From Salinispira sp. (GTDB taxonomy: Bacteria > Spirochaetota > Spirochaetia > DSM-27196 > Salinispiraceae), in contig OZ271918.1 in the NCBI GenBank assembly GCA_965602015.1, positions 2,720,001 to 2,784,000 of the forward strand: a stretch of 64,000 nucleotides of DNA. The letters are read 5' to 3'. Below the pieces are notes generated by a model that did not search any database, was not told the DNA's origin, and was given only the letters and a program-made list of their open reading frames with translations. How positions within the stretch are numbered: position 1 is the stretch's first letter; the number at the start of each line of letters is the position of its first letter. The position numbers and the translations under genes were made by a program. Positions 2,980 to 50,662 of this stretch are shown piece after piece.

Positions 2980-2989
2980 ATAGACCCTC

Positions 2990-5189: not shown

Positions 5190-5191
5190 GA

Positions 5192-27305: not shown

Positions 27306-29432
27306 TCAGGCGTTCTGGCGTTCCCGGGCGAATTCCAGGAAGTGATCGCCGCTCAAGGGTTTGCTGTGATAAAACCCCTGGATAATATCACAATTATTGT
27401 TGAGCAGGAAGTTCAACTGTTCGGCATTATCCACGCCTTCGGCCACGACCCGGTACCCCATTCCCTGCACCATTGAAATAATGGCCTGCACCAGGGCGCT
27501 GTTCTGGCTGTCGAAGGGAAGGTCTATGACAAACGAGCGGTCGATTTTCACCGCCGCAATGGGAAGGCGCTTGAGGTATGAAAGACTTGAATAGCCCGTG
27601 CCGAAATCATCAATGGAAAATTTGAGGCCGATGTCCGCCATGTTCTGAAGTTTGCTGATCAGACCGTCCTGATCCTCAACCAGGGAGTTTTCCGTTATTT
27701 CAAGGTGGAGCGACCGGGGGTCGAGACTGTTCATCCTCAGGTTCGAAATAAGAGTGCGCTGGAGCTTACCGTCCCGCAGCTGCCGGGGGCTCAGATTAAT
27801 GCTCACCGGAATGCTCAACCCCCTCGAACGCCAAAGCACCAGGGTTTTGCAGGCCTCTTCGATGACCCAGGTACCGATGGGGATAATCAGTCCGGTTTCC
27901 TCGGCTACGGGGATAAACTCCGCGGGGCTAACGGACCCCAAAACCCCATGGTTCCAGCGCAGCAGTGCTTCGGCTCCGACAAGATTGCCGGCACCGTCCA
28001 GCTGCGGCTGATAATGAAGGCTGAGCTCTCTGCGATCGACCGCCTGACGCAGGTAATTAATCATCTGGATCTTGCCCACCGCCCGCTCCTGCATTGCCGG
28101 AGTGTAAAAACGGTAGGTGTTGCGGTCGAGTTTCGCTTCCTGGAGAGCTTGATCGGCGTGACTGGTAATATCCGCAATTGAAAGGCCGTCCCGGGGGAAC
28201 ATGGAAATACCAATGCTGGCGCTGAGATAGACGCTGTGCCAATCCCATTCGAATTGCTTCTGAAAAACTTCAAGCAGCCGTTCACTTATCATCGCCACAT
28301 CAAGTTCACTGCCGACCTCGGAAATGAGAATTCCGAACTCGTCGCCTCCGGTGCGGTACAACCGTCCCTGATTCCCCAGGGAAGCGGAAAAGCGCTTCGC
28401 GATGGCATTAAGAATTTCATTTCCCGCGTCATTGCCGAGGCTTTCGTTGATATTTCCGAAATAATCAATGTCTATCTGAAGAACGGCGTGAAGCGGTGTT
28501 TGCCCCCCAATAGCGCCCTGGTTACGGCATATTTCATTCAGTGCGCTGAAAAACTGACGCCGGTTTTCCAGTCTGGTCAAGGGGTCATGGGTTTCCAGAT
28601 AGGCAAGTTCAGACTCGATATTTCTCGTACGGCTCGCCCGGTCCAGGTACTCCCTCACCAGAATGAAGGCCATCATGATGGTCAGCAGGGTGAAGGCTGC
28701 GCCGAGGAAACTCTGTTCCAGCCCTCTCACGGGGAACATGTCCAGAATATAGACGGTCAAAAGGAGGGCCAGGCCGACGCTGATGCTGATGCGCAGCAGG
28801 AGGTCCCTTTTCAAGCCCTTGCGGAACAGGCTTATGGCCATGTAGTAGCCGGCGCCTGAAACAAGCAGGGCGTCGCGAATCCAGGCAAGGACTCCCCGTG
28901 ATGCCACACCCTCAGGGCCAATCGTCACGATACCACGGGGAAACGCCGCCCCGGCGCCGATGAGGACGGCGGACGCGATCATTACGGTCACCAGAACCAG
29001 CTTGTCTAATCCGGTCATGACGGTCTGCGTCGCGGAGCTGATCAGGGAGCCTGTTTGCGCTACCTGTAATTCGGCGGTAAACAGATCCTCCCGACGGAGA
29101 TACACCAGCAGCGCGAACAGTAGAAGCATGGAATTAATGAGCAGGTGCTCCAGATTGTGAAGCCGCAATGACGAATAGGGAGTGCCGCCGGCGGCCTGAA
29201 ACAGGTTGTACATTTTAATCAATGGAAATGCGCCGGCCAGAGTGCTGATAAGCACAGCGACGAAATGGAACCACTTGCGGGATTTATACAGCAGGTAGCT
29301 GAAGAACGCCGTGGTGAAGAGGAGAAGCCCAATCTGTATGGACAGCCTGATTATGGCACCGATGCCGCCCGAGGAGAAAAAAGTATATATATTCACGAAA
29401 AAACGTTCCGATGAAGTACGCTGCCACCGCAT
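27306..29432 (-). CDS. Multi-TM diguanylate cyclase/phosphodiesterase (GGDEF-EAL)
   Basis: About 7 TMs, intact GGDEF, EALLRW and DDFGTGYSSL. Confidence 0.92.
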   Translation of the reverse strand: MRWQRTSSERFFVNIYTFFSSGGIGAIIRLSIQIGLLLFTTAFFSYLLYKSRKWFHFVAVLISTLAGAFPLIKMYNLFQAAGGTPYSSLRLHNLEHLLINSMLLLFALLVYLRREDLFTAELQVAQTGSLISSATQTVMTGLDKLVLVTVMIASAVLIGAGAAFPRGIVTIGPEGVASRGVLAWIRDALLVSGAGYYMAISLFRKGLKRDLLLRISISVGLALLLTVYILDMFPVRGLEQSFLGAAFTLLTIMMAFILVREYLDRASRTRNIESELAYLETHDPLTRLENRRQFFSALNEICRNQGAIGGQTPLHAVLQIDIDYFGNINESLGNDAGNEILNAIAKRFSASLGNQGRLYRTGGDEFGILISEVGSELDVAMISERLLEVFQKQFEWDWHSVYLSASIGISMFPRDGLSIADITSHADQALQEAKLDRNTYRFYTPAMQERAVGKIQMINYLRQAVDRRELSLHYQPQLDGAGNLVGAEALLRWNHGVLGSVSPAEFIPVAEETGLIIPIGTWVIEEACKTLVLWRSRGLSIPVSINLSPRQLRDGKLQRTLISNLRMNSLDPRSLHLEITENSLVEDQDGLISKLQNMADIGLKFSIDDFGTGYSSLSYLKRLPIAAVKIDRSFVIDLPFDSQNSALVQAIISMVQGMGYRVVAEGVDNAEQLNFLLNNNCDIIQGFYHSKPLSGDHFLEFARERQNA

Positions 29433-29506
29433 CTCGCAGCGAAGGTATTTCCCACCGGCCTCCGCTACAAGTATCGGCAGCTATCCGGCAGAATGGCCGA
29501 ATAATA

Positions 29507-32500
29507 TCAGATTTCTATTTCGATGTCACCGTTCGGATAGGAGCAGCAGCTCAGTATGGTTCCCGAATCAGCGCTCCGTCGGTCGAGAATATTCGGTTCA
29601 TCCATTATTACCCGGCCGGACACCAATGTGCAGCGGCATTCGCCGCATCGTCCGACCAGGCAGTTGCCGCGCAGCCTCCGGCCGGCCTTTGTGAGTCCGT
29701 CCAATACGCTCTCTCCGGGATTTATGGTCACGAACGAATTGTCGGGCAAAAGCCGCATTTCAGCCCTGTGAGCCGGACGCCGGGAGCGGCTGTGCGCCGG
29801 GGTGAATGCTTCCCGGTGAATGGCGAGATCGCTGCCCGCTGCGGACAGTCCCGCGCTCATGATTTCGACGAAATCCGCTCCGCCGCATATATACGCCGTG
29901 GACAAGTCTCCGCTGAGATCCTGCACATCGGAAACATCGATTCGCCGTTGGTGAACACCTACTCTTCCTGCCTCAAACGCAGACAGCCAGACGGGACTCC
30001 CGCCGGCCGGGGCTGCGGTGCTCGGGCTCCCGGCGCTCGGGGCAGCAGCGTCCGGGGCAGCATAGCCCGGAGCTGTGGCGCCCGGGCTCCCGGCGCCGAC
30101 AAACAGGTCGATCTTTAGCCGAGGCAGTCGTTTGGCGATGGTTTCCAATCCGGAGTAAAACGGCCAGTATGCCAGATCGCCGGTGGCGACCAATAATCTG
30201 CCTCCCTTCTGAGGGACAGCCTCCAAGCTTCTGGCGTGCAGCATGGACAATACGGGAGCGAATCCCGCTCCCGCTGCGATAAACAGTTCTCCGGAAATCG
30301 AATTTTCTCCGAGGGTAAAATCGCCGTGAGCCGGTCCTCCCCGAAGCTTTTGGCCAACCCGGGCGTCCTCGGCAAAGAACTCCCATGCAAGCCCACCTTC
30401 CCTCCGTTGGATGACGATTGCGTCCCGGGGACAGGTCTCGACGGAATAGGCGCGAAGGAACGAACGGCCCCGGTGGGTAATGCGGAAGGTTATGCATTGT
30501 CCCGGTTTGGCAATCACCGCAGAACCGTCTGACCGGGAAATGCCGACCCGCAGGAACTCGTCGCCAAATCGCTCTATGTAATCTATTCGATAGAGCACGG
30601 GCACATCGGATGATCCTGATTTTTTTCGGAAGTACCAGGCTGCACCAAGAAATAACAACTCTCCGCCCACGCCCAGCGCCAAAATGCCCCCAGCCCTGGG
30701 ATCCCAGCCGTAGCTATGAAGACCTGTAGCCATCAGATTGACGCCGAACCAGGAAAACAATAGCACAATCAAGGATGCGGCCGAGCTCAGTGATAGGGCA
30801 TACTCGCTTAATTTTTCCCCGGGGCGGGCATGAAGAAGGAGCGAGAGCCAGATGATAAGAAGAAGTGCGGCATTCTCTTTCGGATCCCAACCCCAGAAGC
30901 GTCCCCAGCTTTGGTCGGCCCAAATTCCGCCGAGCATGGTGCCGACGAACATAAACAGCAGGGCCAGGCGGAGACTGAGCAGAAGACCGCGATATCTGGC
31001 AGCGGCGTTTCCCGGACCGTCGGGAGATCTGATAATGGAAACCGCATGGACATGCCCGATGGCCGAGGCAAGGAAAACCAGGGCATAACCGGTGATAATT
31101 ACCAGTACATGGACGCTGAGCCAGAAATTGCTGTCGAGAACGGCCTGGACAACTGCCAGGTCATCTCCGCCGGAAATAAATCCCGGTGAAACAAGAAGGA
31201 CAAGAGAAGCGCACAAAAGTACCGCCGCCTGCTGCCTCGAATTACGTACCCCCAACACGATCCCTGCTACGGGCATGAGAAAACCGACCAACAGCAGGCT
31301 GGAGTAAAGACTGGTGACCGGCGGCCTTCCGGTAATAAAAATGCGCAGCAGCAGTCCGGACAAGCTGAGCAGCACCCCAAGGGCGACCCCGGCAGGAGCC
31401 GCAGATTGCACTGCCCTCACCAACCATCGGCTTCCGGAGGTATATGCCGCGGGAGCCCTGTTGCGGGAAGCCAGGTAGATGTACATCAGCGCCGAGGCGG
31501 CAAATAGCAAACCCGCAAGCCGGTATGGCCGCAGATTTCGATACCATCCCTCGGCCCGCAGCCTGGCTGATGAGAGGTCGGTACTGTCTGCCTGAAGCGT
31601 TATTATGCGGGAAATATAGTCGGGGGATAAAATCCCTGAGGACTGGAGGATTGAGTCTCTATCGCTGGGAGGCAGGGAGGGATCGAGGGGATGATACCAC
31701 AGACCGTCTCCGCCGGGCATTACCCGGAGGGGATGCCCCCGGTAAAAATCCGGCTCAATCGATTCCGGATTATCGATCCTGAGAAACTCGAGACTCCCCG
31801 CCAATCGCAAAACAGTTTCGAGCCGGGCATCCAAAAGCAACAGTTCATCGGAAAGAGGATCCTCTCCCGGAGCTAGCCCAGCAGCCAGCGCGGCAATGTT
31901 CTCGATTGCCGGAAGAAAGTCCGCCGCCGAGTAACGCCCGGTCGGCCGATCCGGAAGGCCGATAAGGGTAAACAAGTCCGGATGATTGACCTTGATCACA
32001 TCGGCCCTCAGGGCATCCAGGGGCGAGAACAGAAGAGCTTCGATAAACGCCGCACCGTCATATCCGGCGGCCCGTCGGCGACCGGAAAGCTCATATAGGA
32101 GGATGCCGCCGAAACTCTCGGCGGGCATCAATCGGCCACCGGAATACACCGCCAGATCCTCTGTCATAGCTCCAGTCGCGCCGCCGATCAGCACAAAAAG
32201 CGCGATACATGCGCAGAACATGAGCAGGATCAAAGCTGATTTCATGACCGGCTTTATCCTATCCGGCAGCACAGCGGCAGCGGTCTGGTGATCAACTCCA
32301 CCACCCGGCATCACTGCTGAAGCGCTCCGGCGTTCAGCTCCAGCGGCCGGCATCACTGTTGCTGCAGATGGATTTTGCTTCGCCCCGGACAGTTTGGCTC
32401 TCCGCTTTTTCTCCCCCCGCCTTCTTTCACCGCGGCTGAAATAGTGGAACAGAAATCCGAAAAAACTGATTCCCGTTCCTATGTAGGGCAAGAGAGCGCC

Positions 32501-33502
32501 TCCGGTCTTTTGAACAGAGAACACAGAAGCTGCAGTGCCGTCATTATTAAACTGATATGAACTCTGATAAAAGACATAGTTCCGATACCTCAGGGGCCGA
32601 TTCATAGCGATGCTGCGCCTGATAGCAGGACCGGCGTCGCGAATCTCCACCTGACTCACGAAGGAGCGCGGAATATCCGTGTCGGGAAAGAACTCCGCTT
32701 CAAAGTCAAGCAAGCCGATGGTGAAAGGAAGCGGCTCTTCTGCAGGCCGAAGCGCAAGCTCGAGGGTTGCAGGACGGCCGCCCACCGGGATTGTCAAACC
32801 GGTCCCGATAGCCGATCCCGCCCAAATATCAACTGCATTAGTTCCGCCGCCGGGAGAAATTAGACGTCCGGAAAGCAGGGGAAGGTTAGAGGCTGCGCTG
32901 TCCGCCCAGGGCACCGGGAGGTACATCCCGGGAGCCTCGGCATCAGGACGGGCATTTGCAATGACCTGGTCGATCTCAAGGCGGTATGTTCGGCGGGAAT
33001 CGTCAGCCCCGATTTCCCAGGTATACACAGTGTTTCCCCGATGCGATCCGAGCACAAAGCTTCCCAACACCGCATCCCGATCAGCAATGGGAAGGGCATC
33101 CTCTGGACCCGAAATCCGATACGTCACTTCCCAGCGGTCGCTGTAAAAGATCCTGTCAGCCTGCTGGCCCTCCCAAATACCCAAAACGAAATACTCGGAA
33201 AAGACATCCGAAAAGCCTCCGAACAGCAGAACAACAAGGCCGATGTGGCCGATTATCAAGCCGAACGGCCGTCTGACACCGGGGAACCTTCTGATAATCG
33301 AGAAAAGCATATTGACCAGGAAGAGGGCCAGTATCAGCCCACCGCCGTACCAGGCATAGAATAGCTGCTGCTGAACTTGATAAATGCCAAGACGTATTTG
33401 AAGCAGGGTGCCGGTAAGTACGAGAAAAAATGACGCAACGAGGATAATGAGGGTGAAATTCATGGAACCGATGAAATCAGCTGCCCTACGGGAGAATCGC
33501 AT
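29507..33502 (-). CDS. Fusion of CcsBA (ResB+CcsA) cytochrome c synthase with an FAD/NAD(P)H oxidoreductase and a [2Fe-2S] ferredoxin
   Basis: ResB (GHIG, MNRPLRYRNYVFYQSS), CcsA WWD motif WADQSWGRFWGWDPKE, SVHV, GLHSY. Then RAYSV, FIAAGAGFAPVLSM, YICG, HREAF and C-x4-C-x2-C...C. Confidence 0.85.
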   Translation of the reverse strand: MRFSRRAADFIGSMNFTLIILVASFFLVLTGTLLQIRLGIYQVQQQLFYAWYGGGLILALFLVNMLFSIIRRFPGVRRPFGLIIGHIGLVVLLFGGFSDVFSEYFVLGIWEGQQADRIFYSDRWEVTYRISGPEDALPIADRDAVLGSFVLGSHRGNTVYTWEIGADDSRRTYRLEIDQVIANARPDAEAPGMYLPVPWADSAASNLPLLSGRLISPGGGTNAVDIWAGSAIGTGLTIPVGGRPATLELALRPAEEPLPFTIGLLDFEAEFFPDTDIPRSFVSQVEIRDAGPAIRRSIAMNRPLRYRNYVFYQSSYQFNNDGTAASVFSVQKTGGALLPYIGTGISFFGFLFHYFSRGERRRGEKKRRAKLSGAKQNPSAATVMPAAGAERRSASAVMPGGGVDHQTAAAVLPDRIKPVMKSALILLMFCACIALFVLIGGATGAMTEDLAVYSGGRLMPAESFGGILLYELSGRRRAAGYDGAAFIEALLFSPLDALRADVIKVNHPDLFTLIGLPDRPTGRYSAADFLPAIENIAALAAGLAPGEDPLSDELLLLDARLETVLRLAGSLEFLRIDNPESIEPDFYRGHPLRVMPGGDGLWYHPLDPSLPPSDRDSILQSSGILSPDYISRIITLQADSTDLSSARLRAEGWYRNLRPYRLAGLLFAASALMYIYLASRNRAPAAYTSGSRWLVRAVQSAAPAGVALGVLLSLSGLLLRIFITGRPPVTSLYSSLLLVGFLMPVAGIVLGVRNSRQQAAVLLCASLVLLVSPGFISGGDDLAVVQAVLDSNFWLSVHVLVIITGYALVFLASAIGHVHAVSIIRSPDGPGNAAARYRGLLLSLRLALLFMFVGTMLGGIWADQSWGRFWGWDPKENAALLLIIWLSLLLHARPGEKLSEYALSLSSAASLIVLLFSWFGVNLMATGLHSYGWDPRAGGILALGVGGELLFLGAAWYFRKKSGSSDVPVLYRIDYIERFGDEFLRVGISRSDGSAVIAKPGQCITFRITHRGRSFLRAYSVETCPRDAIVIQRREGGLAWEFFAEDARVGQKLRGGPAHGDFTLGENSISGELFIAAGAGFAPVLSMLHARSLEAVPQKGGRLLVATGDLAYWPFYSGLETIAKRLPRLKIDLFVGAGSPGATAPGYAAPDAAAPSAGSPSTAAPAGGSPVWLSAFEAGRVGVHQRRIDVSDVQDLSGDLSTAYICGGADFVEIMSAGLSAAGSDLAIHREAFTPAHSRSRRPAHRAEMRLLPDNSFVTINPGESVLDGLTKAGRRLRGNCLVGRCGECRCTLVSGRVIMDEPNILDRRSADSGTILSCCSYPNGDIEIEI
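32263..32368. repeat. Degenerate 42-bp in-frame tandem repeat (about 2.5 copies) inside the CcsBA fusion
   Basis: CCGGCA(G/T)CAC recurs at 32263, 32305 and 32347, encoding AATVMP/ASAVMP/AAAVLP. Confidence 0.6.
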
Positions 33503-33583
33503 ACGCTGCTTATTGTGCTTTTAGGGCTTGTGAGGGTCAAGGGATTTCACTACACGTGAGGCCATCCAGTGTTTACCTTATAG

Positions 33584-33695
33584 AGTGCCCGAAAGCTTGT
33601 TGAAAAACAGATTGTTGTCAGTGAATGGGGCAAGAGGAATGCCGTTAACCAGTTTTTCCCTCTCAGGCAACGGCTTCAACAAGCTTTGGGGTACT
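33584..33695. mobile_element. MITE/REPIN-like doublet 1 (inverted ~21-bp ends, ~70-bp spacer)
   Basis: AGTGCCCGAAAGCTTGTTGAA ... TTCAACAAGCTTTGGGGTACT, the same motif as the ends at 37298 and 40737. Confidence 0.75.
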
Positions 33696-33722
33696 GTATG
33701 TCTCGCATAAGGAGTATGTCAC

Positions 33723-34298
33723 ATGAAAAAAATAGTGGTTGTTTTTATATTGCTTGTCTCAAGCGTGAGTCTACTGGCATCAGGAGGCAATGAAGACGCG
33801 AACGATGCGCTCTCTCAGGAGGAATGGCCCGATCAGATCCAGGGCATACCGATCACCAGGTTTGAGGACGATTTCGAGTATCCGATCCAGTATAGCGAAG
33901 AAGAGTGGAGACAGTTTCTCAGTGATTTCGACTACATTATCCTTCGGGAAAAGGGAACGGAACGGGCCTGGCTGAACAAGTACAACGGAAATAAAGAACG
34001 GGGCACCTATTACTCAAAGGCTACCGGCCAGCCGCTCTTTAGCTCAGAGACAAAATATGATTCGGGAACTGGCTGGCCGAGTTTCTGGGAGCCCATCGAT
34101 TCAAATGCAGTACATCTTATTCCCGATTATTCATATGGCATGATCCGTGTAGAAGTTGTCGATAGCTTAAGCGGCTCGCATTTGGGACATGTGTTCCCCG
34201 ATGGACCGGCACCAACAGGGCTTCGCTATTGCATGAATTCTGCTGCAATGATTTTTGTTCCTGAAGGAGAATCGCCCCCACAAGTAGGACTGAGGTAA
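33723..34298 (+). CDS. msrB: Peptide-methionine (R)-S-oxide reductase with signal peptide
   Basis: KGTERA, KYDSGTGWPSF, SHLGHVFPDGP and RYCMNSAA. N-terminal export signal. No Zn-binding CxxC. Confidence 0.92.
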   Translation: MKKIVVVFILLVSSVSLLASGGNEDANDALSQEEWPDQIQGIPITRFEDDFEYPIQYSEEEWRQFLSDFDYIILREKGTERAWLNKYNGNKERGTYYSKATGQPLFSSETKYDSGTGWPSFWEPIDSNAVHLIPDYSYGMIRVEVVDSLSGSHLGHVFPDGPAPTGLRYCMNSAAMIFVPEGESPPQVGLR

Positions 34299-34354
34299 GG
34301 AATCCCTTGATTTAGCTCCGGCTATGGGCATAGACTCTCAATCAGGAGGAACAC

Positions 34355-35113
34355 ATGCTCATAGCTTTGATTGTTCTTGGGTCCTTAATCGCCCTATTTA
34401 TCATCATCTATTTTATAGAACCCTTTGTTATCGCCCTACTATTTTCGTGGATACTGTCGCTATTCGTGAAAAATCCCCCGTATGTGGATGTGGAAGAAGA
34501 GTTTCCTGAAGGTAAACTGCTCAAAGATAACTGGAAGGTTATCAGGGAAGAGCTTGATGTGGTCTTAAGGAATATTGAGAACATTCCCAAATTCCACGAA
34601 GTTGACAATCTGCAACGCTTTATTTCTGCGAAAGATGATAAAGCATGGAGGACCTTTATTATAAAAGGCTTTAACGAATGGTTGGAGAACAATTGCGAAC
34701 AGGTGCCAAAAACTACTGAACTGATCAAACAGATACCCCGGGTATCCATGGCAATGTTCAGTATTATTGATGGAGGTAAACATATCCCTCCTCATTACGG
34801 CTTTTTCAAATCAGTGTTGCGCTACCACCTGGCAATGATCATCCCCGAGGGCGAATGCTACATACTGGTTGATGGCCAGAAGTACAGTTGGGTTGAGGGA
34901 GATCATGTTCTTTTCGATGATACCTACAAACATGAGGTATGGAACAAAACGGATCAACGACGAGTAGTTCTATTCATCGACGTCCTTCGGGAAAAGGGCT
35001 TGCCAAAATGGATGCAGGCGATCAACCGATGGATGTTTGGGATTCTTCGGAATTCGAAAAAGCTACAAAAAGCAGCAAAAAACGCTGAAGTGGCAAAGGA
35101 CATATCCGCATAG
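34355..35113 (+). CDS. Membrane-anchored Asp/Asn beta-hydroxylase family 2OG-Fe(II) dioxygenase (LpxO-like lipid hydroxylase?)
   Basis: FSII..GKHIPPHYG, LRYHL, W.EG...LFDDTYKHEVWN...RVVLFID and an N-terminal hydrophobic anchor. Confidence 0.85.
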   Translation: MLIALIVLGSLIALFIIIYFIEPFVIALLFSWILSLFVKNPPYVDVEEEFPEGKLLKDNWKVIREELDVVLRNIENIPKFHEVDNLQRFISAKDDKAWRTFIIKGFNEWLENNCEQVPKTTELIKQIPRVSMAMFSIIDGGKHIPPHYGFFKSVLRYHLAMIIPEGECYILVDGQKYSWVEGDHVLFDDTYKHEVWNKTDQRRVVLFIDVLREKGLPKWMQAINRWMFGILRNSKKLQKAAKNAEVAKDISA

Positions 35114-35123
35114 TTATTAACCT

Positions 35124-35223
35124 AGTACCTGGAAGCTTGTTAATACGTACGATTAGCCTACTGAGCACGAGTATGATTCGTCGGCTGGTCCCTTTTTCTT
35201 TTTTCAACAAGCTTTCAGGCACT
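35124..35223. mobile_element. MITE/REPIN-like doublet 2
   Basis: AGTACCTGGAAGCTTGTTAA ... TTCAACAAGCTTTCAGGCACT between two convergent genes. Confidence 0.72.
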
Positions 35224-35230
35224 CGAATCA

Positions 35231-35995
35231 TTAGCTTCGATATAGCAACGCATTCGCCGGGCAAATATCAACTTGAATGTCCGCCGGTATTTTATTTTCG
35301 AGAGCCACACTCCATAGAAGGTGATCACCATAACCGTCGCTTGTACCGTTGACCCGATGGCCGTCGTGTTCAAGCCATGGGACGCTGCAGCTATCCGCCA
35401 GGTATCCATGGCTTCCGATGCTCAAACCGAGAGCTTTAACTGCTGCCTCTTTCACCGTCCAAATTGATAAAAACTTCTTCTTGTCCAAAGTGTCAGATTC
35501 GACAATCAACTTTTCGCTTGGGTTAAAATAATACTTCATCACTGCACGGATACTCGAGGGTAGCAATGAGCGTCTCGTGTCCTCGAGATCGACCCCGATA
35601 TGACACTCCGCACTCAGGCCGATAAGCAAAGCATCCGAGCGTGTGCTCATGTTGAAAAACTCGAACTTTTGTCCGTTCATCCTTCGAAGTCGTGGCTTAC
35701 CCAGAGGACCGTTCTCAATTTCATCTCCTATATCTAATGGTTCCATGCCCTGAGAACTAAACCAGCTATCCAGTCCGCTATACAGACATATCCTACGCCG
35801 TAAATAATCCTTAGCATCATCGGTTCTGACATAAGCCTTTGTCGCATCAAAATCAACCGGACGCGGCATGATTACCGGTGATAGGTTTGAAGCGTTCCAA
35901 GGATCAGGAATTAGCTCTGGAATATCAGTGAATAATAAAAGGGCGGGATCTTGAGGACTTTCACTTTGAATAAAAACATCTTCCCTGGCGGACAT
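35231..35995 (-). CDS. Sfp-type 4'-phosphopantetheinyl transferase
   Basis: GKPRL, FNMS, IGVDLE and WTVKEAAVKALG. Confidence 0.85.
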   Translation of the reverse strand: MSAREDVFIQSESPQDPALLLFTDIPELIPDPWNASNLSPVIMPRPVDFDATKAYVRTDDAKDYLRRRICLYSGLDSWFSSQGMEPLDIGDEIENGPLGKPRLRRMNGQKFEFFNMSTRSDALLIGLSAECHIGVDLEDTRRSLLPSSIRAVMKYYFNPSEKLIVESDTLDKKKFLSIWTVKEAAVKALGLSIGSHGYLADSCSVPWLEHDGHRVNGTSDGYGDHLLWSVALENKIPADIQVDICPANALLYRS

Positions 35996-36050
35996 AGGTC
36001 ATGTATAGTACTCTATCCGAATCCGAAGTGAAATAGATCTGGAGGCACAA

Positions 36051-37295
36051 GTGGCAGAGCAACGCAGAGTCGTGATTACCGGTTTAGGAACCGTAAACCC
36101 CCTGGGAATGAACGTCAGTGAATTCTGGGATAATCTAGTAAAAGGTAAAAGCGGCGCCCGAGTAGCCCAAAATATGAACTTGGACGACTTCCATGTCCAG
36201 ATTGCTGCGGAAATTGATCTGCCCGATGTTCGGGACTTCTTTAAGCAACGAAAAATGGCACGGAGGCTGGACCGACATATTGTTCTCGGACATATCGCAG
36301 GGGTTCAAGCCGTGAAAGATGCCGGCTTTGAAGAGGCTGATAGGCCTGAGCGGATCGGGGTCCTCATCGGTACCGGCGATGCAGGGTTGATCACCCACTT
36401 TGAGCAAATCGGCCGGATTTACAAGACTGGACTTTCATCGGTCAGCCCCTTCTATATCTCAGCAGCGATCCCTAACTCGACAAGCGCCATGATTAGTATG
36501 GAATTTGGTTTCGGCGGTCCCAGCTTCTCGGTCAGCTCGGCTTGTGCGTCAGCAAATCATGCATTTGGTCTCGCAGTAAATATGATACAAAGCGGCATGA
36601 CTGATGTGATGTTCACCGGAGGAACGGAAGCAGTAGCTACAGAGCCCTCAATCGCCGCATTCGGCCAGATCGGCGCCCTATCAACAAGAAATGACGACCC
36701 CCTTACCGCATCGCGTCCATTTGACATCGACCGTGATGGTTTCGTAATGGGAGAAGGCGCAGGCGTGCTATGTCTCGAAGAACTCGAACATGCGAAAAAA
36801 CGCGGGGCAAAAATATACGGAGAAATTGCAGGATACGGATTTACCAGTGACGCCTACGACCTCGTTGCCCCTCATCCGGATGGAGAAGGCGCATCCCGAG
36901 CGATCACCATGGCCCTCGAGGCGGCCAAGGTCAATGCCGATGAATTAGATTTTATAAATACTCACGGGACCAGTACTCCACTGGGCGACAAAGCCGAATG
37001 CATGGCAGTTAATAAGGCCATCGGAGGCGATTTAGCCTCCACCATACCTGTGCATAGCACCAAAAGCATGACGGGCCATTTGATCGGGGCTGCGAGTGCG
37101 GTCGAAGCAATAGCAGGTATTATGTCGTTTGAACAGGGCGTGATACACCATACGATAAATCAATTCACAAAAGACCCTGAGCTCAATTACAACATAATCA
37201 CAGAACCCCTGGAAAAACGAGCGGAGGTGTTTTTATCGAATGCTTTTGGCTTCGGTGGTCAAAACGCATGCGTAGTATTCAAGCGGCAGCTTTAA
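36051..37295 (+). CDS. fabF: 3-oxoacyl-ACP synthase II
   Basis: RRVVITGLG, SACAS (Cys), NTHGTST, KSMTGH and NAFGFGG. Confidence 0.93.
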   Translation: MAEQRRVVITGLGTVNPLGMNVSEFWDNLVKGKSGARVAQNMNLDDFHVQIAAEIDLPDVRDFFKQRKMARRLDRHIVLGHIAGVQAVKDAGFEEADRPERIGVLIGTGDAGLITHFEQIGRIYKTGLSSVSPFYISAAIPNSTSAMISMEFGFGGPSFSVSSACASANHAFGLAVNMIQSGMTDVMFTGGTEAVATEPSIAAFGQIGALSTRNDDPLTASRPFDIDRDGFVMGEGAGVLCLEELEHAKKRGAKIYGEIAGYGFTSDAYDLVAPHPDGEGASRAITMALEAAKVNADELDFINTHGTSTPLGDKAECMAVNKAIGGDLASTIPVHSTKSMTGHLIGAASAVEAIAGIMSFEQGVIHHTINQFTKDPELNYNIITEPLEKRAEVFLSNAFGFGGQNACVVFKRQL

Positions 37296-38358
37296 GGAGT
37301 GCCCCAAAGCTTGTTGAGTTCTTGTTTCAGTCATAAATATACTTTGGGACATAGCGTTTCATTGAAATCCCTGGATTTCTCCATGCCATAAACCAGGTTT
37401 TATTCGCTTGATCATCAAGTTCGATTTTTGATCTAAATACCCGACGCATCATGCCTTTGGATAGATTGTCAAGGATTAACTCCCTATTCGCACCTGCTAT
37501 CTCGGCACGAGTAGTTTGTGTTCCTTTTCGATACTGCCTTACCCGATGAGGGATAATGCAGTTATGAAAAAGCTGGTATACCGTCAATCTGCTCATCATT
37601 GCCGACGGACATCGAGCAAACTGAACCGTCTCGCGCACATGATCAGACAAGTCTTTCCGGAATTGCCGATCACAATAATTCACCGGAAACAAAGGATTTG
37701 AACGAGCTCTAAGCTCTTTTGAAGAGATCCTGGAATGATGCATACATCGAGATAACCCCCTGACCTCATTAAATGCTTCGGGATAGCAGTGGTGTTCATC
37801 TGTATACAATCGCGCTTCGATCTGCTCTTTTTGAGCAATCAGCTTAAGGAGCACATCGAAGAGCATCTTCATTGATCGTTTTGTAGATCTGGAGTCTGCA
37901 ACTGCTGTTTCTTCTAATAATTTCCGCTTCCTTTTCTGTGCTTTTGTCATTTTACCTTTACGTCTGAGTATTGATAATCCAATCGCATATAGATATTCGC
38001 TTTCAGAACCAACCAAGATATTGATATTGTTAGGGAAGAATTGGCTTCGAGAAAAAGATTCAAAGCCATCTGCACAAAAATTCTCCTTCGATTTGAGCAA
38101 GGGTTGAAGAAAACTGAGGATTCCGAGGGCTGAGCGCGATAACCTTTCAATTCGATTTTGAATCACATCAACGCTGACACCCAGCAATCGTGTCAAATCC
38201 CATAGCCCCGAGCAGGTTACCAAGTGATTGTCATCACCGGTGCTAAATTGCAGGAAATCACCGGACTAAAATTGCAGACTCCGGCTTGAAAAAAAGGGCG
38301 ATGCTACCTTGTAATGGTTGTTACCACACAATCATTCAAGTAAGGAGCACGCCCTAAA

Positions 38359-39609
38359 ATGCTGGAGCTACTGATGCATGAAGCACAGATGTTGAAACAA
38401 CAGGGTAAGAGAATCGGTCAGATCGCCGAAGCCCTGGGAAAAAGTGAACGCATGGTTCACTACTACCTTGCAGAGCCTTCAAGGTCTCGAAAGAAGCGGA
38501 ATTACACGAGCAAGCTCGATCCGTTCAAACCCTACATCGACACTATACTCGAGGAAGACCCGTCCTTCAATCGGGAGGTTCTGTTGAGGAACCTGCGAAA
38601 ACAGAAATACGATGGCGGGGTCACAATCCTCAGGGATTATGCTGCCAGGAAGGCTGCAGATATCACAAAACAGGCAGTTATCCGGTTCGAAACCGAACCG
38701 GGCTACCAGGCTCAGGTGGATTGGAAAATCCTGGGAAAACAGCTGGTGGACGGACGGTGGCAGAAACTCTATGCCTTTGTCATGGTATTCGGCTACTCGA
38801 GAATGCCGTTTGTCATTCATACCACGAGCATGGACATGGCCACCTTTCTGATGTGCCACGTATTGGCATTCACATATTTTGGCGGGGTGCCGGAAGAAAT
38901 CCTGTACGACAACATGAAAACCGCCTTTATCTACCAGGCCGCAGAGGAGAAATGGCAGGTCAACAAGCACCTGCTGTCTCTGGCCCGGCACTATGGATTC
39001 ACACCCCGCCGATGCCAGGTCCGCCGGCCTCAGACCAAAGGAAAGGTCGAACGGTTCATCCAGTTCTACGAGAACAACTTCTGGATCGAGCACAAAGCAC
39101 TGCCAGCTGGACTGATTGAGTTAAACGAAGCAGTCATCACCTGGTGCGAGGATATCAGCCACAGAGTCATCGGCGGGCTCAATGAAAGCCGATCAGAACG
39201 CTTTACGCATGAAAAGGCTTTCCTTACCCCCTTACCAACGCAGCCGTTTGATTACCGGAAACCGACCAATGTGCGTGTCTCCGGTGAATCTCTGGTACGG
39301 GTGAGAAACAACTGGTACAGCGTTCACCCGCAATTCATTGGTGCAGAGGTAATTGTACGTATCGATCCGCTCACCGGTGAGGCCGAAGTATCATCAGAGG
39401 ATCAGATCATCCGAACCTTCATGCTTAACCTCGAATTGCGAAATCAACGGTTCTACCTGGCTGAACACTCAGCGGCGCTGACCGAGCTCTGGAAAAGGCA
39501 GTACCGGATACCCAAGAGAAGAAAACGGATAAAGGTTTCTACCGATGTTGATGTCCGCTCACCTGGGGAGTACGACCGCTTGTTTGCACTGCAGGAGGCG
39601 GCCTCATGA
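38359..39609 (+). CDS. istA: IS21 transposase
   Basis: RFETEPGYQAQVDW, LYDNMKT and PQTKGKVER. Confidence 0.95.
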   Translation: MLELLMHEAQMLKQQGKRIGQIAEALGKSERMVHYYLAEPSRSRKKRNYTSKLDPFKPYIDTILEEDPSFNREVLLRNLRKQKYDGGVTILRDYAARKAADITKQAVIRFETEPGYQAQVDWKILGKQLVDGRWQKLYAFVMVFGYSRMPFVIHTTSMDMATFLMCHVLAFTYFGGVPEEILYDNMKTAFIYQAAEEKWQVNKHLLSLARHYGFTPRRCQVRRPQTKGKVERFIQFYENNFWIEHKALPAGLIELNEAVITWCEDISHRVIGGLNESRSERFTHEKAFLTPLPTQPFDYRKPTNVRVSGESLVRVRNNWYSVHPQFIGAEVIVRIDPLTGEAEVSSEDQIIRTFMLNLELRNQRFYLAEHSAALTELWKRQYRIPKRRKRIKVSTDVDVRSPGEYDRLFALQEAAS

Positions 39610-40367
39610 CTAGTAAAAGCACAATGATTACAGCCCGTATGGAAGAGTTGGGTTTGAGCTTCATGGCTGCCGGTCTGGACAGTTTTCTCTCAAGCCAGGT
39701 GAATCAGGATGCGCCTCTGATTGAAGCGATCGGAGAACTCATTGATCTGGAACTGATTCCCCGAAAGGAACGAATGGCCAAAACCCGCTTGAAGGTTTCA
39801 GGAATTCCCCAGGGAAAGAATCTTGAATCCTTTGATCTGTCATGGCCGAAAGGCGGTCTTACACACAAGCAGTTCAACGAACTGTCCACCCTTGCGTTCA
39901 TTGAACGTAAAGAGAATGTCATTCTGCTTGGTCCCAGTGGATTGGGTAAAACGCACCTCATGACAGCGCTTGGACAGAAGGCATGTATGAATGGGTATAC
40001 GGCCTATTTCATCAGCTGTCTTGATTTGCTTGAACGATTACAGCGTTCCCGGGATCAGGGAAGATTGAAAAACAAACTGACCTGGTTTGGCAAACCCCAC
40101 GTTCTGTTGATTGATGAAGTTGGGTATGAAAACCTGAATGCTGAGCAGGCAGCCTTGTTTTTCCAGCTGATCAATACCCGCTATGAGCATGGATCAATCA
40201 TTCTGACCAGCAACAAAGTATTCGGGAAGTGGGGAGAAATCATGACTGATGACGCAGTTGCTACGGCCACTTTGGACCGGCTGCTTCATCACTCCCATGT
40301 GATCAGCCTGAAAGGAGACTCGTATCGGATGAAGGATCGAATGAAAATCGGAGTCGTTGACTTCTAA
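39606..40367 (+). CDS. istB: IS21 helper ATPase
   Basis: GPSGLGKT, LLIDEVGY, LDRLLHH and GDSYR. ATGA overlap with istA. Confidence 0.95.
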   Translation: MTSKSTMITARMEELGLSFMAAGLDSFLSSQVNQDAPLIEAIGELIDLELIPRKERMAKTRLKVSGIPQGKNLESFDLSWPKGGLTHKQFNELSTLAFIERKENVILLGPSGLGKTHLMTALGQKACMNGYTAYFISCLDLLERLQRSRDQGRLKNKLTWFGKPHVLLIDEVGYENLNAEQAALFFQLINTRYEHGSIILTSNKVFGKWGEIMTDDAVATATLDRLLHHSHVISLKGDSYRMKDRMKIGVVDF

Positions 40368-40819: not shown

Positions 40820-42235
40820 ATGAATCCGTTTTTTTCCACCCCCAGTTTGATTCTCGCCGGCAGCATGCTGGGCCTAACAATGGGAATTACGCTTCTGGTA
40901 CACGGCACAATGACAAAAACCAGGATGGGGCATTGGTTTGGGACTGCACTGCTCCTCGTTTCGTTTGGTATTATTTCATTCCTGTTTGATGGCCGTTTGC
41001 CGGCTTTGGTTCAACAGCTTATTTCAACTGTTCCGCTTCTTGCCGGGTTTATGGTCTATGAGTTCGGGTTCAGTCATATTTTTCGCAGACCGCTTCGGCC
41101 TGCGGTTCCCCTGATTGCCCTTTCGCTAAGCATTCCATTGCTCGCAGCGGGAACCTTGATCTGGGATAGTTTTATTTTCCGCACAGTGGCGGTAAACAGC
41201 ATTCTCGTTTTTTACTTGATTCGGGTGTCGCTACTTTGCTTTGCCCAAGCGAGGGTACTACCCAAGACCGCGGTCCGTCTTTTTGGTTTTTTAAATCTTA
41301 TGCTGGCATTGGCTCCGCCGATCAGTCTTGCGTTTATTCTTGCGGATTCCCAGACCATCACGGTTAGTAATCATGGTTTTATCAATAGTTTTTACTTCTT
41401 TATGTTTTATTTGTGGATGTTTGTCCTGGTCGGCGGGTACTTTGAGTTTCGCGGCTTGGATAATCGGCAAGAGGACAAGACACAGCGGGATGCTGAAGAA
41501 CTCCTCCTTGATAATCAGCGGTTCCTGAACAGGGTAATCAGTCATGATTTGAACGGTCCCCTGAGCAGCCTGCACAATCTTCTTGTGGAACTGAGAGATT
41601 TACTTCGCGCCGGTCAAATACCCGAGAGTCAGTTTGTCGACGTTATGGTAGACGTCAGCCGTTCGAGTAATCGCCTTCTGCAAAATGTGAGCGATCTTGG
41701 CAAGTATCAGCTTCACCGGGCACTTCCCCGTCCAAGGGAAACCCTCCTTGCACCTTTACTGTGGTCGTCCATTGAATCGATGGAGGTCGAGGCTCAGCTT
41801 CGCAATATTGAAATAATTCAGGAGTTTCAGGAAGATTTATTGGTGCTGGCTGACCAACAGGGTTTACAGGCAGTGGTTCGCAATCTTCTTGAGTTCTTCA
41901 TCGATAGGAGTCCGAAAAACAGTTTTATTCTTCTTCAGGCCGTGCGAAGCAGGGATGATAAAACGCTCATCAATATCCGGATCAAAGATCAGGGCGATGC
42001 TCTCGCTCCGGATTTTATTTCTGATTTAGCAGAATATCTGAATAGACGTCATAATCTCTATTCGAAACAGGAAAATGCCTCAAGCATTGGATTGATGGTT
42101 ATGCTAACGGTCTGCAGAGAACTCAACTGGGATTTGATTTTTTCCAACTTGGATAATAATGAGGGAGTTCAGGCGGAACTTCGCATTCCCGCGTCAGGCA
42201 GTAGGCAAAGCGGGATGATCGACCCGGAGGTCTAA
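40820..42235 (+). CDS. Multi-TM sensor histidine-kinase-like protein with degenerate ATPase domain
   Basis: About 7 TMs and H-box SHDLNGPL. N and G boxes are degenerate (RNLLEFF, DQGDA, SSIGL). Confidence 0.7.
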   Translation: MNPFFSTPSLILAGSMLGLTMGITLLVHGTMTKTRMGHWFGTALLLVSFGIISFLFDGRLPALVQQLISTVPLLAGFMVYEFGFSHIFRRPLRPAVPLIALSLSIPLLAAGTLIWDSFIFRTVAVNSILVFYLIRVSLLCFAQARVLPKTAVRLFGFLNLMLALAPPISLAFILADSQTITVSNHGFINSFYFFMFYLWMFVLVGGYFEFRGLDNRQEDKTQRDAEELLLDNQRFLNRVISHDLNGPLSSLHNLLVELRDLLRAGQIPESQFVDVMVDVSRSSNRLLQNVSDLGKYQLHRALPRPRETLLAPLLWSSIESMEVEAQLRNIEIIQEFQEDLLVLADQQGLQAVVRNLLEFFIDRSPKNSFILLQAVRSRDDKTLINIRIKDQGDALAPDFISDLAEYLNRRHNLYSKQENASSIGLMVMLTVCRELNWDLIFSNLDNNEGVQAELRIPASGSRQSGMIDPEV

Positions 42236-42765
42236 TCACCCAGTATTATTACTTCTCCGATCACCGTTACTGCAACTTTTCCATCAACGAGCGCCTGACC
42301 GATCATCGATGCAAAATACCCGTCGAAGTCGAGTTTTTTCGCCAAGAGGGTGACTGTGCTGCCTGGCAGGATGGGCTCGAGATAATATGCGCCTGCGATT
42401 CGGGTGGCCCGGGCCGGGACTGGAACCGCATCGGATGCAATATCGGTTTTCCCCCGGGTCTCGAAATAGTACATGCATAGGCCGAGCTGACCGATCATCT
42501 CGAGGGTAAAATTCCCCGGATAGAGCGGAGCGCCGGGGAAATGTCCCTGAAATACCGGATCGCCGGGATCGATATAACGATCTCCGGCGATAAGTCCGGC
42601 ATCCAGGTCAAGACCGGTGATTCGGTCAATGAATAGCAGAGGTTCCCGATGGGGAATGATTTTCTCTATATCCTTTTTTCCATAGTCGCAGCTGACCGGT
42701 AGCGTAGACGGGTCGAACAGAGCTTTTTTTCGGAAACTGCGAAGCAGCTTATCGGGATCGTTCAT
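42232..42765 (-). CDS. 3-hydroxyacyl-ACP dehydratase (FabZ/FabA family)
   Basis: IPHREPLLFIDRI and FQGHFPGAPLYPG...E...Q. Confidence 0.88.
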   Translation of the reverse strand: MNDPDKLLRSFRKKALFDPSTLPVSCDYGKKDIEKIIPHREPLLFIDRITGLDLDAGLIAGDRYIDPGDPVFQGHFPGAPLYPGNFTLEMIGQLGLCMYYFETRGKTDIASDAVPVPARATRIAGAYYLEPILPGSTVTLLAKKLDFDGYFASMIGQALVDGKVAVTVIGEVIILGD

Positions 42766-42778
42766 TGTTGTCCGGTCC

Positions 42779-42845
42779 TTTTTTTTGCGCGCTCGTTTAA
42801 TTTTGCGCGATCATGTTTTTTGCGCAATCATGTTTTTGGCGCTTG
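42779..42845. repeat. Short degenerate tandem repeat TTTTGCGC(G/A)ATCATG (about 4 copies)
   Basis: ttttgcgcgctcg / ttttgcgcgatcatg / ttttgcgcaatcatg / tttggcgc in the gap between the AOS and dehydratase genes. Confidence 0.6.
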
Positions 42846-42885
42846 TACTATCATTCGGCACTTGAATTGTGCTTTACGGCGCAAA

Positions 42886-44142
42886 CTAGGCTTTAAGGCC
42901 CTTCGCGATGACGTCTTCCATTATGTTGAGTGCTGTATCCATATCTTCCCTGTTGAACTGGGATGAGACTGAGATCCGGAACCGTCGGGCATGGGCGGGA
43001 ACCGCCGGATAGTCAATGGGCTGGAGAAACAGTCCCCGCAGCTGCATTTCGGCGGCGAAGCGAAAGAGTTTTTCTCCGCTTGGCCCGATGATCACCGGGA
43101 TGACCTGGCTTTCGCTGTCGCCGATGTCCAGGCCCATAGCCTGTATGTTTTCCTTGAGGTAGCGGGTATTGGACCAAAGTTTATCCCGCAGGCTTGAATC
43201 TCTGGTAGCCACTTCCAGGGCCTTGATGAGTCCTGCTACAACAGGGGGGCTGGGGGCGCAGGAGAAATTCCAAGCGGATGCATATCCTTTGAGATAGCGG
43301 ACTATGGATGAATTTGAGGCGATGAATCCGCCGACTCCGCCGAAGCTCTTGCTCAGGGTTCCGTATGACATTCCCACCTTATCTTCAAGGCCGAAGTACT
43401 CGCCGATGCCCCCGCCATGGTCTCCGAACATGAGGGTTGAATGAGCCTCATCCAGGTAAACCGGTGTGTTGTACGCATCCGAGAGCTTGACGATTTCCGG
43501 GAGCTTGCAGAGATCCCCGTCCATTGAATACACGCCTTCGACGCAAATCAGTTTTCTCTTGTCTTTGAACTGCTCGAGCTTTTGCTCGAGGCTGTTCATA
43601 TCATTGTGATCGAAAAAGACCATCTTGGCGCCGGAAAGGGTTCCTCCGTCGATCAGGCTTTTATGGATTTTTTCATCGAAGATGACCACATCGCCTTTAC
43701 GGAGCAGTCCCTGGAGGGCGCCCACGTTTCCGCCGTATCCCGATGAGAATAAAAGGGCATCTTCCTTGCCTTTGAGTTTTGCCAGTTTTTTAGCGAACTC
43801 AAGGTGGAGATCCAATGTGCCCGATACAAGCGGTGCTCCGGAGGAACTCATGCCGTATTTATCCACCGCTTCCTTCACCGCTTCAAGCACTTCCGGATGA
43901 GTGGACAGACCCAGGTAATTATAGCTGGTCATGTTTATCATCTTCCGGCGTTTCCCATCCAGATTACTGAGTATTTCAGTCTCCGCGCTGGGCGCCTTCA
44001 ACAGGCTCTGTCCGGTAAAACTGAATGCAGTCTGAACTTCGGGATCCAGGAACCATTCCTCGAAATCCCGAGGCGGGTCCAGAACATTGGGACTGTCGTT
44101 ATAATGAAAATCCGCGAGACTAAAATCGGTAGCTTTTGCCAT
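42886..44142 (-). CDS. PLP-dependent alpha-oxoamine synthase (serine palmitoyltransferase-like)
   Basis: SYNYLGL, FSSGY, EGVYSMDGD, DEAHS and GTLSKSFG (PLP Lys). The Spt-like role is inferred from gene context. Confidence 0.8.
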   Translation of the reverse strand: MAKATDFSLADFHYNDSPNVLDPPRDFEEWFLDPEVQTAFSFTGQSLLKAPSAETEILSNLDGKRRKMINMTSYNYLGLSTHPEVLEAVKEAVDKYGMSSSGAPLVSGTLDLHLEFAKKLAKLKGKEDALLFSSGYGGNVGALQGLLRKGDVVIFDEKIHKSLIDGGTLSGAKMVFFDHNDMNSLEQKLEQFKDKRKLICVEGVYSMDGDLCKLPEIVKLSDAYNTPVYLDEAHSTLMFGDHGGGIGEYFGLEDKVGMSYGTLSKSFGGVGGFIASNSSIVRYLKGYASAWNFSCAPSPPVVAGLIKALEVATRDSSLRDKLWSNTRYLKENIQAMGLDIGDSESQVIPVIIGPSGEKLFRFAAEMQLRGLFLQPIDYPAVPAHARRFRISVSSQFNREDMDTALNIMEDVIAKGLKA

Positions 44143-44300
44143 GGTAATTCCTCATTTTGGGATAGATCCGGATGTGGGGTGGATGATGAGAAAGACGGGA
44201 TGATATCCAGGTATGACCGGAGGCCCCATCCCCTGCCGGAACGTCACCGTCCGGCGGAACGGAAATGATCCCGAGCCGCCGGTGGTGAAAGTGGAGCGTA

Positions 44301-44543
44301 CTACTCGACGTGCTCCATAAATTTGTCAGCGAGTCCGTCGATGTCACCGATGTCAGCCAGTTCGGAACGGGGGATCTTGATATCAAGGTCCCGCATTGAA
44401 CAGCTGACAACTTCGATAATATCGAGGCTGTTGGCGCCGTAATCCTTCATGGACTTGGAGGCGTCAATTTCATCCATTTCGATATCATCAAGATTATCGA
44501 CGATGTTTTTTTTGATGACTTCAATGACTTCGTTCTTCGTCAT
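44301..44543 (-). CDS. Acyl carrier protein, AcpK-like (beta-branching donor type)
   Basis: Acidic 80-aa protein with a GANSLD phosphopantetheine motif instead of GxDS. Confidence 0.88.
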   Translation of the reverse strand: MTKNEVIEVIKKNIVDNLDDIEMDEIDASKSMKDYGANSLDIIEVVSCSMRDLDIKIPRSELADIGDIDGLADKFMEHVE

Positions 44544-44610
44544 GATGTCTCTCCTCTATTAAATCCGTCTCAGTACGGCAAACTCACGGGCGAAAAACCC
44601 GTGGACCGAA

Positions 44611-45432: not shown

Positions 45433-45549
45433 GTTTTCTCCTCTCAGGCCTAATCTCCGCCCCGGCGCTGAGCCTCGCTATGATTTGCGGGCTTAGCCCA
45501 TCGCAGACGGATACATCAATAATTTTGCCGTTGCAGTATAGAGATTTTT

Positions 45550-48534: not shown

Positions 48535-48572
48535 GCTTTGCTCCTGTATGTTCACGCTCCAGAGACAAGGTC

Positions 48573-50599: not shown

Positions 50600-50662
50600 A
50601 CTTTGTTAACTCCATTGCCCGTCGCCATAAAAACGCGAGCGGGATTTATAAATTGACTGCTA

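Follow-up and report, generated by a model that had tools for sequence, protein, structure and literature searches.

The locus and its reading frame

In a 64,000-nucleotide stretch of DNA from Salinispira sp. (GCA_965602015.1, contig OZ271918.1, positions 2,720,001 to 2,784,000; here called the window), the minus strand carries at 29507..33502 an open reading frame (ORF) of 1331 residues that joins CcsBA, the system II cytochrome c synthase, to a reductase with flavin, NAD(P)H and [2Fe-2S] domains. An earlier interpretation made from the letters alone (the sequence-only reading) had described one uninterrupted frame, and zero internal stops were found. Moreover, contigs of sequencing runs X1 and X2 match positions 29000-34400 without a single difference, and the junction between the two parts near 30.6 kb is bridged by an X3 contig (30159-30886), with no stop or frameshift separating them. 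All four sequencing runs come from one sample, which may be the source of the window, and independent support for the fusion lies in the 27 other fused sequence clusters described below. GC content at third codon positions is alike in the three parts of the gene (0.58, 0.62 and 0.64). Both halves belong to known families.

The synthase half

The CcsB/ResB part (residues 1-355; 32438..33502, minus strand, as are all parts of the gene) comprises a periplasmic domain and three N-terminal membrane helices, as indicated by Pfam, hydropathy and alignment with the solved CcsBA proteins 25vk and 7s9y. It is followed by a basic, low-complexity linker with an internal signal-peptide-like hydrophobic segment (residues 359-445; 32168..32428), recognized by comparison with split forms, and by the CcsA periplasmic domain (residues 446-655; 31538..32167), which appears in a structural model and aligns with residues 292-496 of 25vk. 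The CcsA membrane core (residues 656-961; 30620..31537) has nine predicted helices and matched 7s9y in a Foldseek search (E 6e-13). Pfam matches above the gathering scores were obtained for ResB (PF05140, residues 78-325) and Cytochrom_C_asm (PF01578, residues 731-929), and the TIGR03144 model matched at 105 bits, under its cut-off of 187.6. The closest solved relatives of the whole protein were CcsBA 25vk (E 4e-37) and 7s9y (E 2e-34), with ferredoxins next.

The B. thetaiotaomicron CcsBA is described in PMC13645880 as ligating one haem by H81 and H733 and a second by H635 and H774. Correspondence with 25vk, counted by hand through the pairwise alignment, places His86 (GHIG; 33245..33247) at H81 as the TM-His1 equivalent, His798 (SVHV; 31109..31111) at H635 as P-His1, His891 (LLHA; 30830..30832) at H733 as TM-His2 and His929 (GLHSY; 30716..30718) at H774 as P-His2. 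His86 is matched by histidine in all 7 alignment rows that contain ResB, and the other three are invariant in 24 of 24 rows, as are W861, W866, W870, W872 and D873 of the haem-handling WWD motif (residues 861-873; 30884..30922). Pfam thus agrees with the ResB and CcsA domains of the sequence-only reading, and the 25vk alignment with the four plausible haem-ligand histidines that it had picked out; by alignment H86, H798, H891 and H929 are the counterparts of the CcsBA haem ligands. Like the Helicobacter hepaticus (7s9y/7s9z) and B. thetaiotaomicron (25vk) proteins, which are system II cytochrome c synthases and haem exporters, the fusion protein is a single ResB and CcsA chain with four histidines, WWD, periplasmic domains and a final helix that returns inside. 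Unlike them, it carries a further stretch of approximately 370 residues at the C terminus, an FAD/NAD(P)H/[2Fe-2S] reductase.

The junction between CcsB and CcsA (32168-32260, minus strand) carries an apparent internal signal peptide. Six fused relatives (P0002, P0009, P0011, P0012, P0013 and P0024) have a hydrophobic stretch at the junction, with small residues and then Gln, and in split CcsA-reductase forms a signal-peptide-like N terminus falls where the fused forms have their internal hydrophobic segment. H. hepaticus CcsBA has a comparable stretch ending in Ala363-Tyr-Ala365, near a "natural proteolysis" site reported at position 368 (PMC11322641). The protease that cuts CcsBA is called unknown in PMC13645880, and these sequences suggest that it may be signal peptidase I; against this idea stand a two-residue offset and a 20-residue deletion that left cleavage intact.

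The reductase tail

After the last membrane helix and its basic exit (RKK; 30620..30700) comes a beta-barrel that would bind FAD (residues ~969-1063; 30314..30598), with a RAYS motif and with Trp in place of the Ser of the flavin-phosphate motif GxxS. The NAD(P)H-binding domain (residues ~1070-1235; 29798..30295) has GAGFAP, ICGG and EAF motifs and holds an Ala/Pro/Ser-rich insertion (residues ~1138-1188) in which the predicted local distance difference test score (pLDDT) falls below 50. The C-terminal [2Fe-2S] ferredoxin domain (29510..29770) matches Fer2 (PF00111, residues 1257-1323) and has cysteines C1281, C1286, C1289 and C1319. Barrel, NAD(P)H domain and C-terminal Fer2 follow one another in the order of phthalate dioxygenase reductase.

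NCBIfam models of the PaaE, MmoC, GbcB, BenC, Hcr and flavohaemoglobin types cover residues ~973-1330, all below their cut-offs; the PaaE, MmoC, BenC and Hcr equivalogs scored 49-75 bits against cut-offs of 383-500. Pfam NAD_binding_1 and FAD_binding_6 found no match to the fusion protein at E<=0.01, and each was found in three of the five fused relatives scanned. In an AlphaFold2 model of residues 440-1331 alone, built from a 24-row alignment (mean pLDDT 77.8; predicted template modelling score 0.66), the periplasmic domain is followed by nine long helices, after which come a beta-barrel, an alpha/beta domain interrupted by a disordered insertion and, last, a ferredoxin domain. The top five Foldseek hits of the model comprised 7ylr, full-length self-sufficient P450s, CcsBA 7s9y and phthalate dioxygenase reductase 2pia, and it is 2pia, 7ylr and the reductase part of the self-sufficient P450s that the modeled tail resembles; an ESM Atlas search gave no usable match. 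The ferredoxin reductase-like FAD/NAD module and following ferredoxin that the sequence-only reading had placed after the last membrane helix are thus borne out by NCBIfam, Fer2, the model and Foldseek. The tail shares fold, domain order and motifs with phthalate dioxygenase reductase, PaaE and Hcr (2pia, 7ylr and the CYP116B46 reductase part). It differs from them in being joined to a membrane haem protein, in scoring below every equivalog cut-off and in having no adjacent oxygenase partner. Among the stand-alone relatives listed for the tail of P0004, the nearest are approximately 40% identical, most of the named ones are PaaE or ferredoxin-NADP reductase, and the named taxa are Myxococcota. 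SpNox and flavohaemoglobin likewise join a ferredoxin reductase-like module to a haem-binding domain, and the SpNox tail is cytoplasmic after membrane helices, as predicted for the fusion, but their haem domains are unrelated and they have no [2Fe-2S] domain.

The fusion protein has every one of the RxYS, GxGxxP, CG and ExF motifs, together with the four cluster cysteines. Across the fusions, the four Fer2 cysteines are kept in 27 of 28 (the exception, P0018, is frameshifted), R/K-x-Y/F-S in 28, E-x-F in 27, the Pro of GxGxxP in 26 and the Cys of CG in 22; the GxxS serine is present in 23 and is Trp in the four-member subclade to which the fusion protein belongs (4/28). Mean identity is 30% for the tail versus 49% for the CcsA core. 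Scored against a profile of stand-alone reductases, the frameshifted P0018 tail reached 188 bits and the most diverged tails (P0012, P0013, P0024 and P0123) 58-97 bits. From these sequence comparisons, the tail family looks to have been selected for redox function, yet to have drifted in several lineages.

The P-His2 loop of CcsBA is described as periplasmic and as ligating periplasmic haem (PMC13645880). Because one more helix with a basic end follows that loop, and K or R follows the last CcsA helix in 28 of 28 fusions, the reductase tail is predicted to face the cytoplasm, in line with the sequence-only reading. Haem is described as entering CcsBA from the cytoplasmic side (PMC10663686). 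A complex prediction between the CcsA core (645-964) and the tail (965-1331), run without alignments, scored 0.00, which is not evidence either way.

Distribution and history of the fusion

A search with residues 780-1331 among proteins of 732-2330 residues scored 7999 candidates, of which the best 120 were taken. Among these best 120, CcsA and reductase domains occurred together in 24 clusters (ResB was fused as well in 7 of them and missing from the other 17), at 27-53% identity to the fusion protein. The best 150 matches of a profile search through 1.84 billion representatives contributed P0121, P0123 and two fragments, which brings the fusion to at least 28 clusters, and a third search from P0004 (521-1661 residues) found no new fusion among its best 120. 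The sequence-only reading had named confinement of the reductase part to this strain as something that would count against it, and these searches show otherwise. JGI's automatic two-part name for such proteins shows just that pipelines detect both domains. The sole fused homologue with a taxon name is P0015, from "Spirochaetota bacterium", which makes spirochaetes the likely hosts. We conclude that the fusion is a real, conserved and rare variant of system II CcsBA.

The fusion was found in 5 of 99 genomes of the order: the host genome G000, G001 and G005 (family f1), G060 (f2) and G009 (f3). Among the genomes searched it is confined to this order. In three further genomes of the order (G004, G007 and G090) a CcsA of the same clade is tail-less, with nothing beyond the last helix. 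A single in-frame stop interrupts the periplasmic domain in the G001 assembly, where the contig runs out inside the tail; P0002, which is 99.6% identical to the G001 fusion, is intact. A sample of 401 genomes of the phylum, with two candidates scored per genome, gave no further fusion and large tail-less CcsA in eight genomes. Among 80 named large-CcsA loci, which come almost entirely from other phyla, there was no fusion, and 1 of the 80 had a similar reductase gene in its vicinity. Besides the fusion, G009 has a second, short, unfused ccsB-ccsA pair (G009:C25:777-2571).

The 116 rows of a CcsA-core tree comprised the 28 fusions, the 3 tail-less loci and 5 short CcsA, to which 45 of the 80 named loci and the 35 top unfused proteins were added. 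One branch, with 100 in the Shimodaira-Hasegawa-like approximate likelihood ratio test, parts 78 unfused proteins from the fusions, and the tail-less G004/G007 and G090 (identical to P0122), as well as the apparently tail-less P0129, are nested among the fusions. The long-branch outgroup joins among the fusions, so that the root is unresolved. In a tree of 27 tails (the frameshifted P0018 being left out) with 50 of 120 stand-alone hits and 2 others, the subclades match those of the CcsA tree and the 50 stand-alone reductases split off with a support of 94, unstarred. Over 25 sequences (three were omitted), pairwise identities of core and tail rose together, with a Spearman coefficient of 0.69 that 0 of 2000 permutations reached, and co-inheritance of core and tail spans three families. 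The simplest reading of these trees is one fusion, joint inheritance and approximately three later losses.

Candidate clients, haem supply and thiol reduction in the hosts

Of 13,494 six-frame ORFs in G000, 34 hold CXXCH and just two of these also have an export-like hydrophobic N terminus. Both lie just beyond the window end: a Cytochrome_P460-family protein (G000:C1:2794871-2795524), the closest solved relatives of which belong to the P460/cytochrome c'-beta family (7ead, E 2e-7), and an adjacent membrane sensor with HAMP, Hpt and HATPase domains (G000:C1:2795446-2797689) that aligns weakly with a haem-c chemoreceptor domain (3b47, E 0.79). A CcsA-family gene occurs in 23 and a P460-family gene in 20 of the 99 genomes of the order; the two coincide in 19. 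The P460 family is present in 5/5 fusion genomes, beside the fusion in G060 and approximately 10 kb away in G009; the complete genome of G002, from the same genus, is without ccsBA and P460, and there the EAL gene and MsrB are direct neighbours at the locus. The P460-family protein and the haem-c sensor kinase are plausible clients of the fused synthase.

An exported P460-family protein with a membrane haem-c (CXXCH) sensor forms a recurring module (G000:C1:2794871-2798615 and others). Its output differs between genomes: G000 and G031 have a CheA-like kinase with CheX- and CheY-like genes, and G005 and G009 have an adenylate/guanylate cyclase. The module may be a nitric oxide or redox sensing system. 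The G000 P460-family protein has Lys where 7ead has Phe, which we take to be the position of the P460 cross-link.

Neither HemA, HemB nor HemH was found in G000, a genome that is 99.7% complete, nor was cytochrome bd or a haem-copper oxidase, and with all three Hem enzymes missing we infer that haem must be scavenged. Cytochrome bd was likewise not found in G001, G005 and G009, and haem-copper oxidase was not found in any of the five fusion genomes. Throughout the order HemB occurs in 14 and HemH in 12 of the 99 genomes. A haem-specific uptake system was not recognized in G000: there are three ABC binding proteins of the FecB/BtuF family, two were scanned and neither could be assigned to haem. 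G000 has three UbiA-family genes, two of them MenA-like but below the cut-off, and on that account quinol may be a reductant. Two membrane proteins with C-terminal FAD/NAD domains (G000:C1:876419-877786 and 3139236-3140537), one with PF01794 and SpNox-like, are a further sign of the use of scavenged haem b in a genome free of haem synthesis.

CcdA adjoins a ResA-like thioredoxin gene in G000, and CcdA-family genes were found in 5/5 genomes tested, 4 of them fusion genomes. With this separate thiol-reduction branch the tail is not needed for thiol reduction, and its candidacy as a CcdA substitute was rejected.

The G060 locus (G060:C17:2300-18000) is a compact haem and cytochrome c module. It holds a P460-family gene, ccsB, ccsA-reductase and genes for a cupredoxin, ferrochelatase and DUF2231, together with polyprenyl-synthase-like, MenA-like and hemL-like genes and hemB.

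A proposed built-in haem reductase and its rivals

Modules of the phthalate dioxygenase reductase type turn hydride into single electrons. Since such a module is here predicted to lie on the side at which haem enters the synthase, we favour a route from NAD(P)H through FAD and [2Fe-2S] to ferric haem, that is, a system II CcsBA with a cytoplasm-facing reductase that acts as a built-in haem reductase; on balance we hold this predicted activity to be somewhat probable. NAD(P)H would reduce FAD; as in phthalate dioxygenase reductase, the flavin would then pass on electrons one at a time to the [2Fe-2S] domain tethered at the C terminus, and that domain would reduce Fe3+ haem at the cytoplasmic vestibule or at the TM-haem site (H86/H891). 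The Fe2+ haem would then move to the H798/H929/WWD site and be attached to CXXCH clients (the P460-family protein and the haem-c sensor kinase are the likely ones), whose thiols would be handled by CcdA and the ResA-like thioredoxin. The tail would be an aid and not essential, most useful where haem is scavenged or oxidized. In support, the fusion has been kept in its clusters at a mean tail identity of ~30%, and 19/20 P460 genomes have a CcsA-family gene. The sequence-only reading had proposed that the fusion carries its own haem reductant; the architecture, ligands and cytoplasmic position behind that proposal hold, and the reductant role, though still inferred, is the best reading of them.

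Ligation is described as requiring Fe2+ haem, and CcsBA has been proposed to obtain haem from ferrochelatase (PMC10663686); in vitro, CcsBA is described as working with dithiothreitol and no other factor (PMC8112865). Haem reduction before ligation in system II is listed among unresolved points in PMC13645880, and Table 1 of PMC5526843 marks it with a question mark. Among the papers reached by the literature searches, none was found that describes a CcsA-reductase architecture. A natural single chain of synthase and reductase names a candidate class of reductant and makes the open system II question directly testable. If the favoured reading is true, the fusion would be the first dedicated system II haem reductase found by the literature searches, and it might serve as a self-contained enzyme for cytochrome maturation; rarity (at least 28 clusters, one order) and repeated loss limit its reach. 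A functional analogue of the proposed role is Cyc2p of fungal system III, which, unlike the fused tail, is a separate protein on the intermembrane side serving the unrelated synthase HCCS and which presumably has no [2Fe-2S] domain. Cyc2p is described in PMC3884852 as reducing haem with NAD(P)H and as interacting with HCCS.

Several observations weigh against a built-in haem reductase. The tail is dispensable in close relatives: G004, G007 and G090 are tail-less and without HemB and HemH, and keep a P460-family gene. Absence of HemB does not set the fusion apart, being seen in 4/5 fusion genomes versus 18/18 non-fusion genomes with CcsA, and the control B. thetaiotaomicron, whose 828-residue CcsBA aligns with the synthase part of the fusion alone, also lacks HemB and HemH. 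The G060 fusion adjoins ferrochelatase and HemB. No tail-linked docking residues were found in CcsA, where clade markers were common to tail-less forms. Finally, the tail in question is diverged, with a low profile score (130 bits against the stand-alone reductase profile, versus 294-373 for six intact G060-like tails), Trp in place of the GxxS serine and the insertion. That the tail replaces ferrochelatase in haem auxotrophs was rejected as a rule, since auxotrophy is the background of the order and G060 has hemH and hemB; with the fusion also found beside ferrochelatase, auxotrophy does not explain the tail, which is left as an optional aid.

A serious rival, unlikely in our judgment, is that the tail is a loosely coupled passenger: an ordinary CcsBA would have captured a PaaE-like reductase once, and the reductase, now decaying or lost in several lineages, would serve another cytoplasmic acceptor or merely be tethered to the membrane. 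The approximately three independent losses, the faster evolution of the tail than of the core, the low-scoring tails of P0012, P0013, P0024 and P0123, the frameshift in P0018, the missing docking signature and the scarcity of a similar reductase near unfused large-CcsA loci are all consistent with this explanation. Against it, the cluster cysteines and core flavin motifs have been kept over deep divergence, the linker is short and the two parts are co-inherited in three families, whereas a mere passenger should probably have split off or eroded sooner. Less probable again is a transmembrane wire, in which the TM haem would be a permanent cofactor that passes electrons from NAD(P)H, FAD and [2Fe-2S] to the external haem, such that a self-sufficient, NAD(P)H-driven synthase would reduce haem captured outside or re-reduce periplasmic sensor cytochromes, resetting haem-c gas sensors, in hosts free of terminal oxidases. 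The hosts are mostly haem scavengers, without cytochrome bd in four genomes and without haem-copper oxidase in five, and the clients resemble gas or redox sensors. CcmF, the WWD-family synthase of system I, offers a precedent in its TM haem, which is proposed to be a conduit that reduces substrate haem, with the reductant unknown, and a wired fusion would bring its own electron source to a system II machine that works in the manner of CcmF (PMC10663686 for CcmF). CcmF uses holo-CcmE and a Trp relay, however, and the same source describes the two tryptophans of the relay as absent from CcsBA. The fusion showed no sign of one either: no aromatic column was enriched when 27 fused, 4 tail-less and 300 unfused CcsA cores were compared at the level of sequence. 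All synthase features are also intact, and G060 makes its own haem. The transmembrane conduit that the sequence-only reading had offered as its other option thus found no support, there being no fusion-specific aromatics in the sequence comparison and an exported MsrB that persists after fusion loss.

That same MsrB bears on a proposal now largely refuted and very improbable, that the fusion is an MsrQ-like electron donor to the exported MsrB encoded divergently from it. MsrB does stand next to the fusion, in divergent orientation, in G000, G001 and G005, but the complete G002 genome keeps it (74% identical) at the same locus without ccsBA or P460, it lies on other contigs in G009 and G060, and the genome also has CcdA and a ResA-like thioredoxin. 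Since loss of the fusion leaves MsrB in place, the MsrQ-like role was rejected. An assembly artefact or strain-specific read-through that fused two genes is refuted and has a negligible chance of being right: the junction is bridged by contigs, open fused frames exist in G005, G009 and G060 and at least 28 clusters are fused, and nothing was found in its support, the in-frame stop of G001 lying away from the junction. We conclude that, among the explanations weighed, a built-in haem reductase is the one favoured.

Neighbouring genes and promoter-like sequences

The MsrB gene (33723-34298, plus strand) encodes an N-terminal export signal and a single Cys, with no zinc ligands visible, and is kept in G001, G002 and G005. 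A weak sigma70-like promoter match lies just upstream of the fusion start codon (33512..33540, minus strand); it is a consensus match alone, from a scan that gave 9 sites versus 4.7 expected by chance. The best promoter-like match of the region (10/12, with an extended -10) lies within the 3' end of the fusion gene (29501-29529, minus strand) and is directed into a GGDEF-EAL gene (27306-29432), which may be transcribed separately.

Further away, genes for an Rnf-like complex, read from their translations, are present at 2407-7398 (minus strand) and are a possible source of low-potential electrons. A fatty-acid/polyketide-like cluster occupies 34355-37295 and 42232-51600, with names from 35996 on likewise read off translations, and includes a member of the Asp/Asn beta-hydroxylase family, a phosphopantetheinyl transferase, ketosynthases, an HMG-CoA-synthase-like protein, enoyl-CoA hydratases and an aminotransferase. 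The cluster is broken up by an IS21-like transposase pair (38359-40367) and another likely insertion sequence gene (37327-38223), and G005 has a cluster like it upstream of the fusion.

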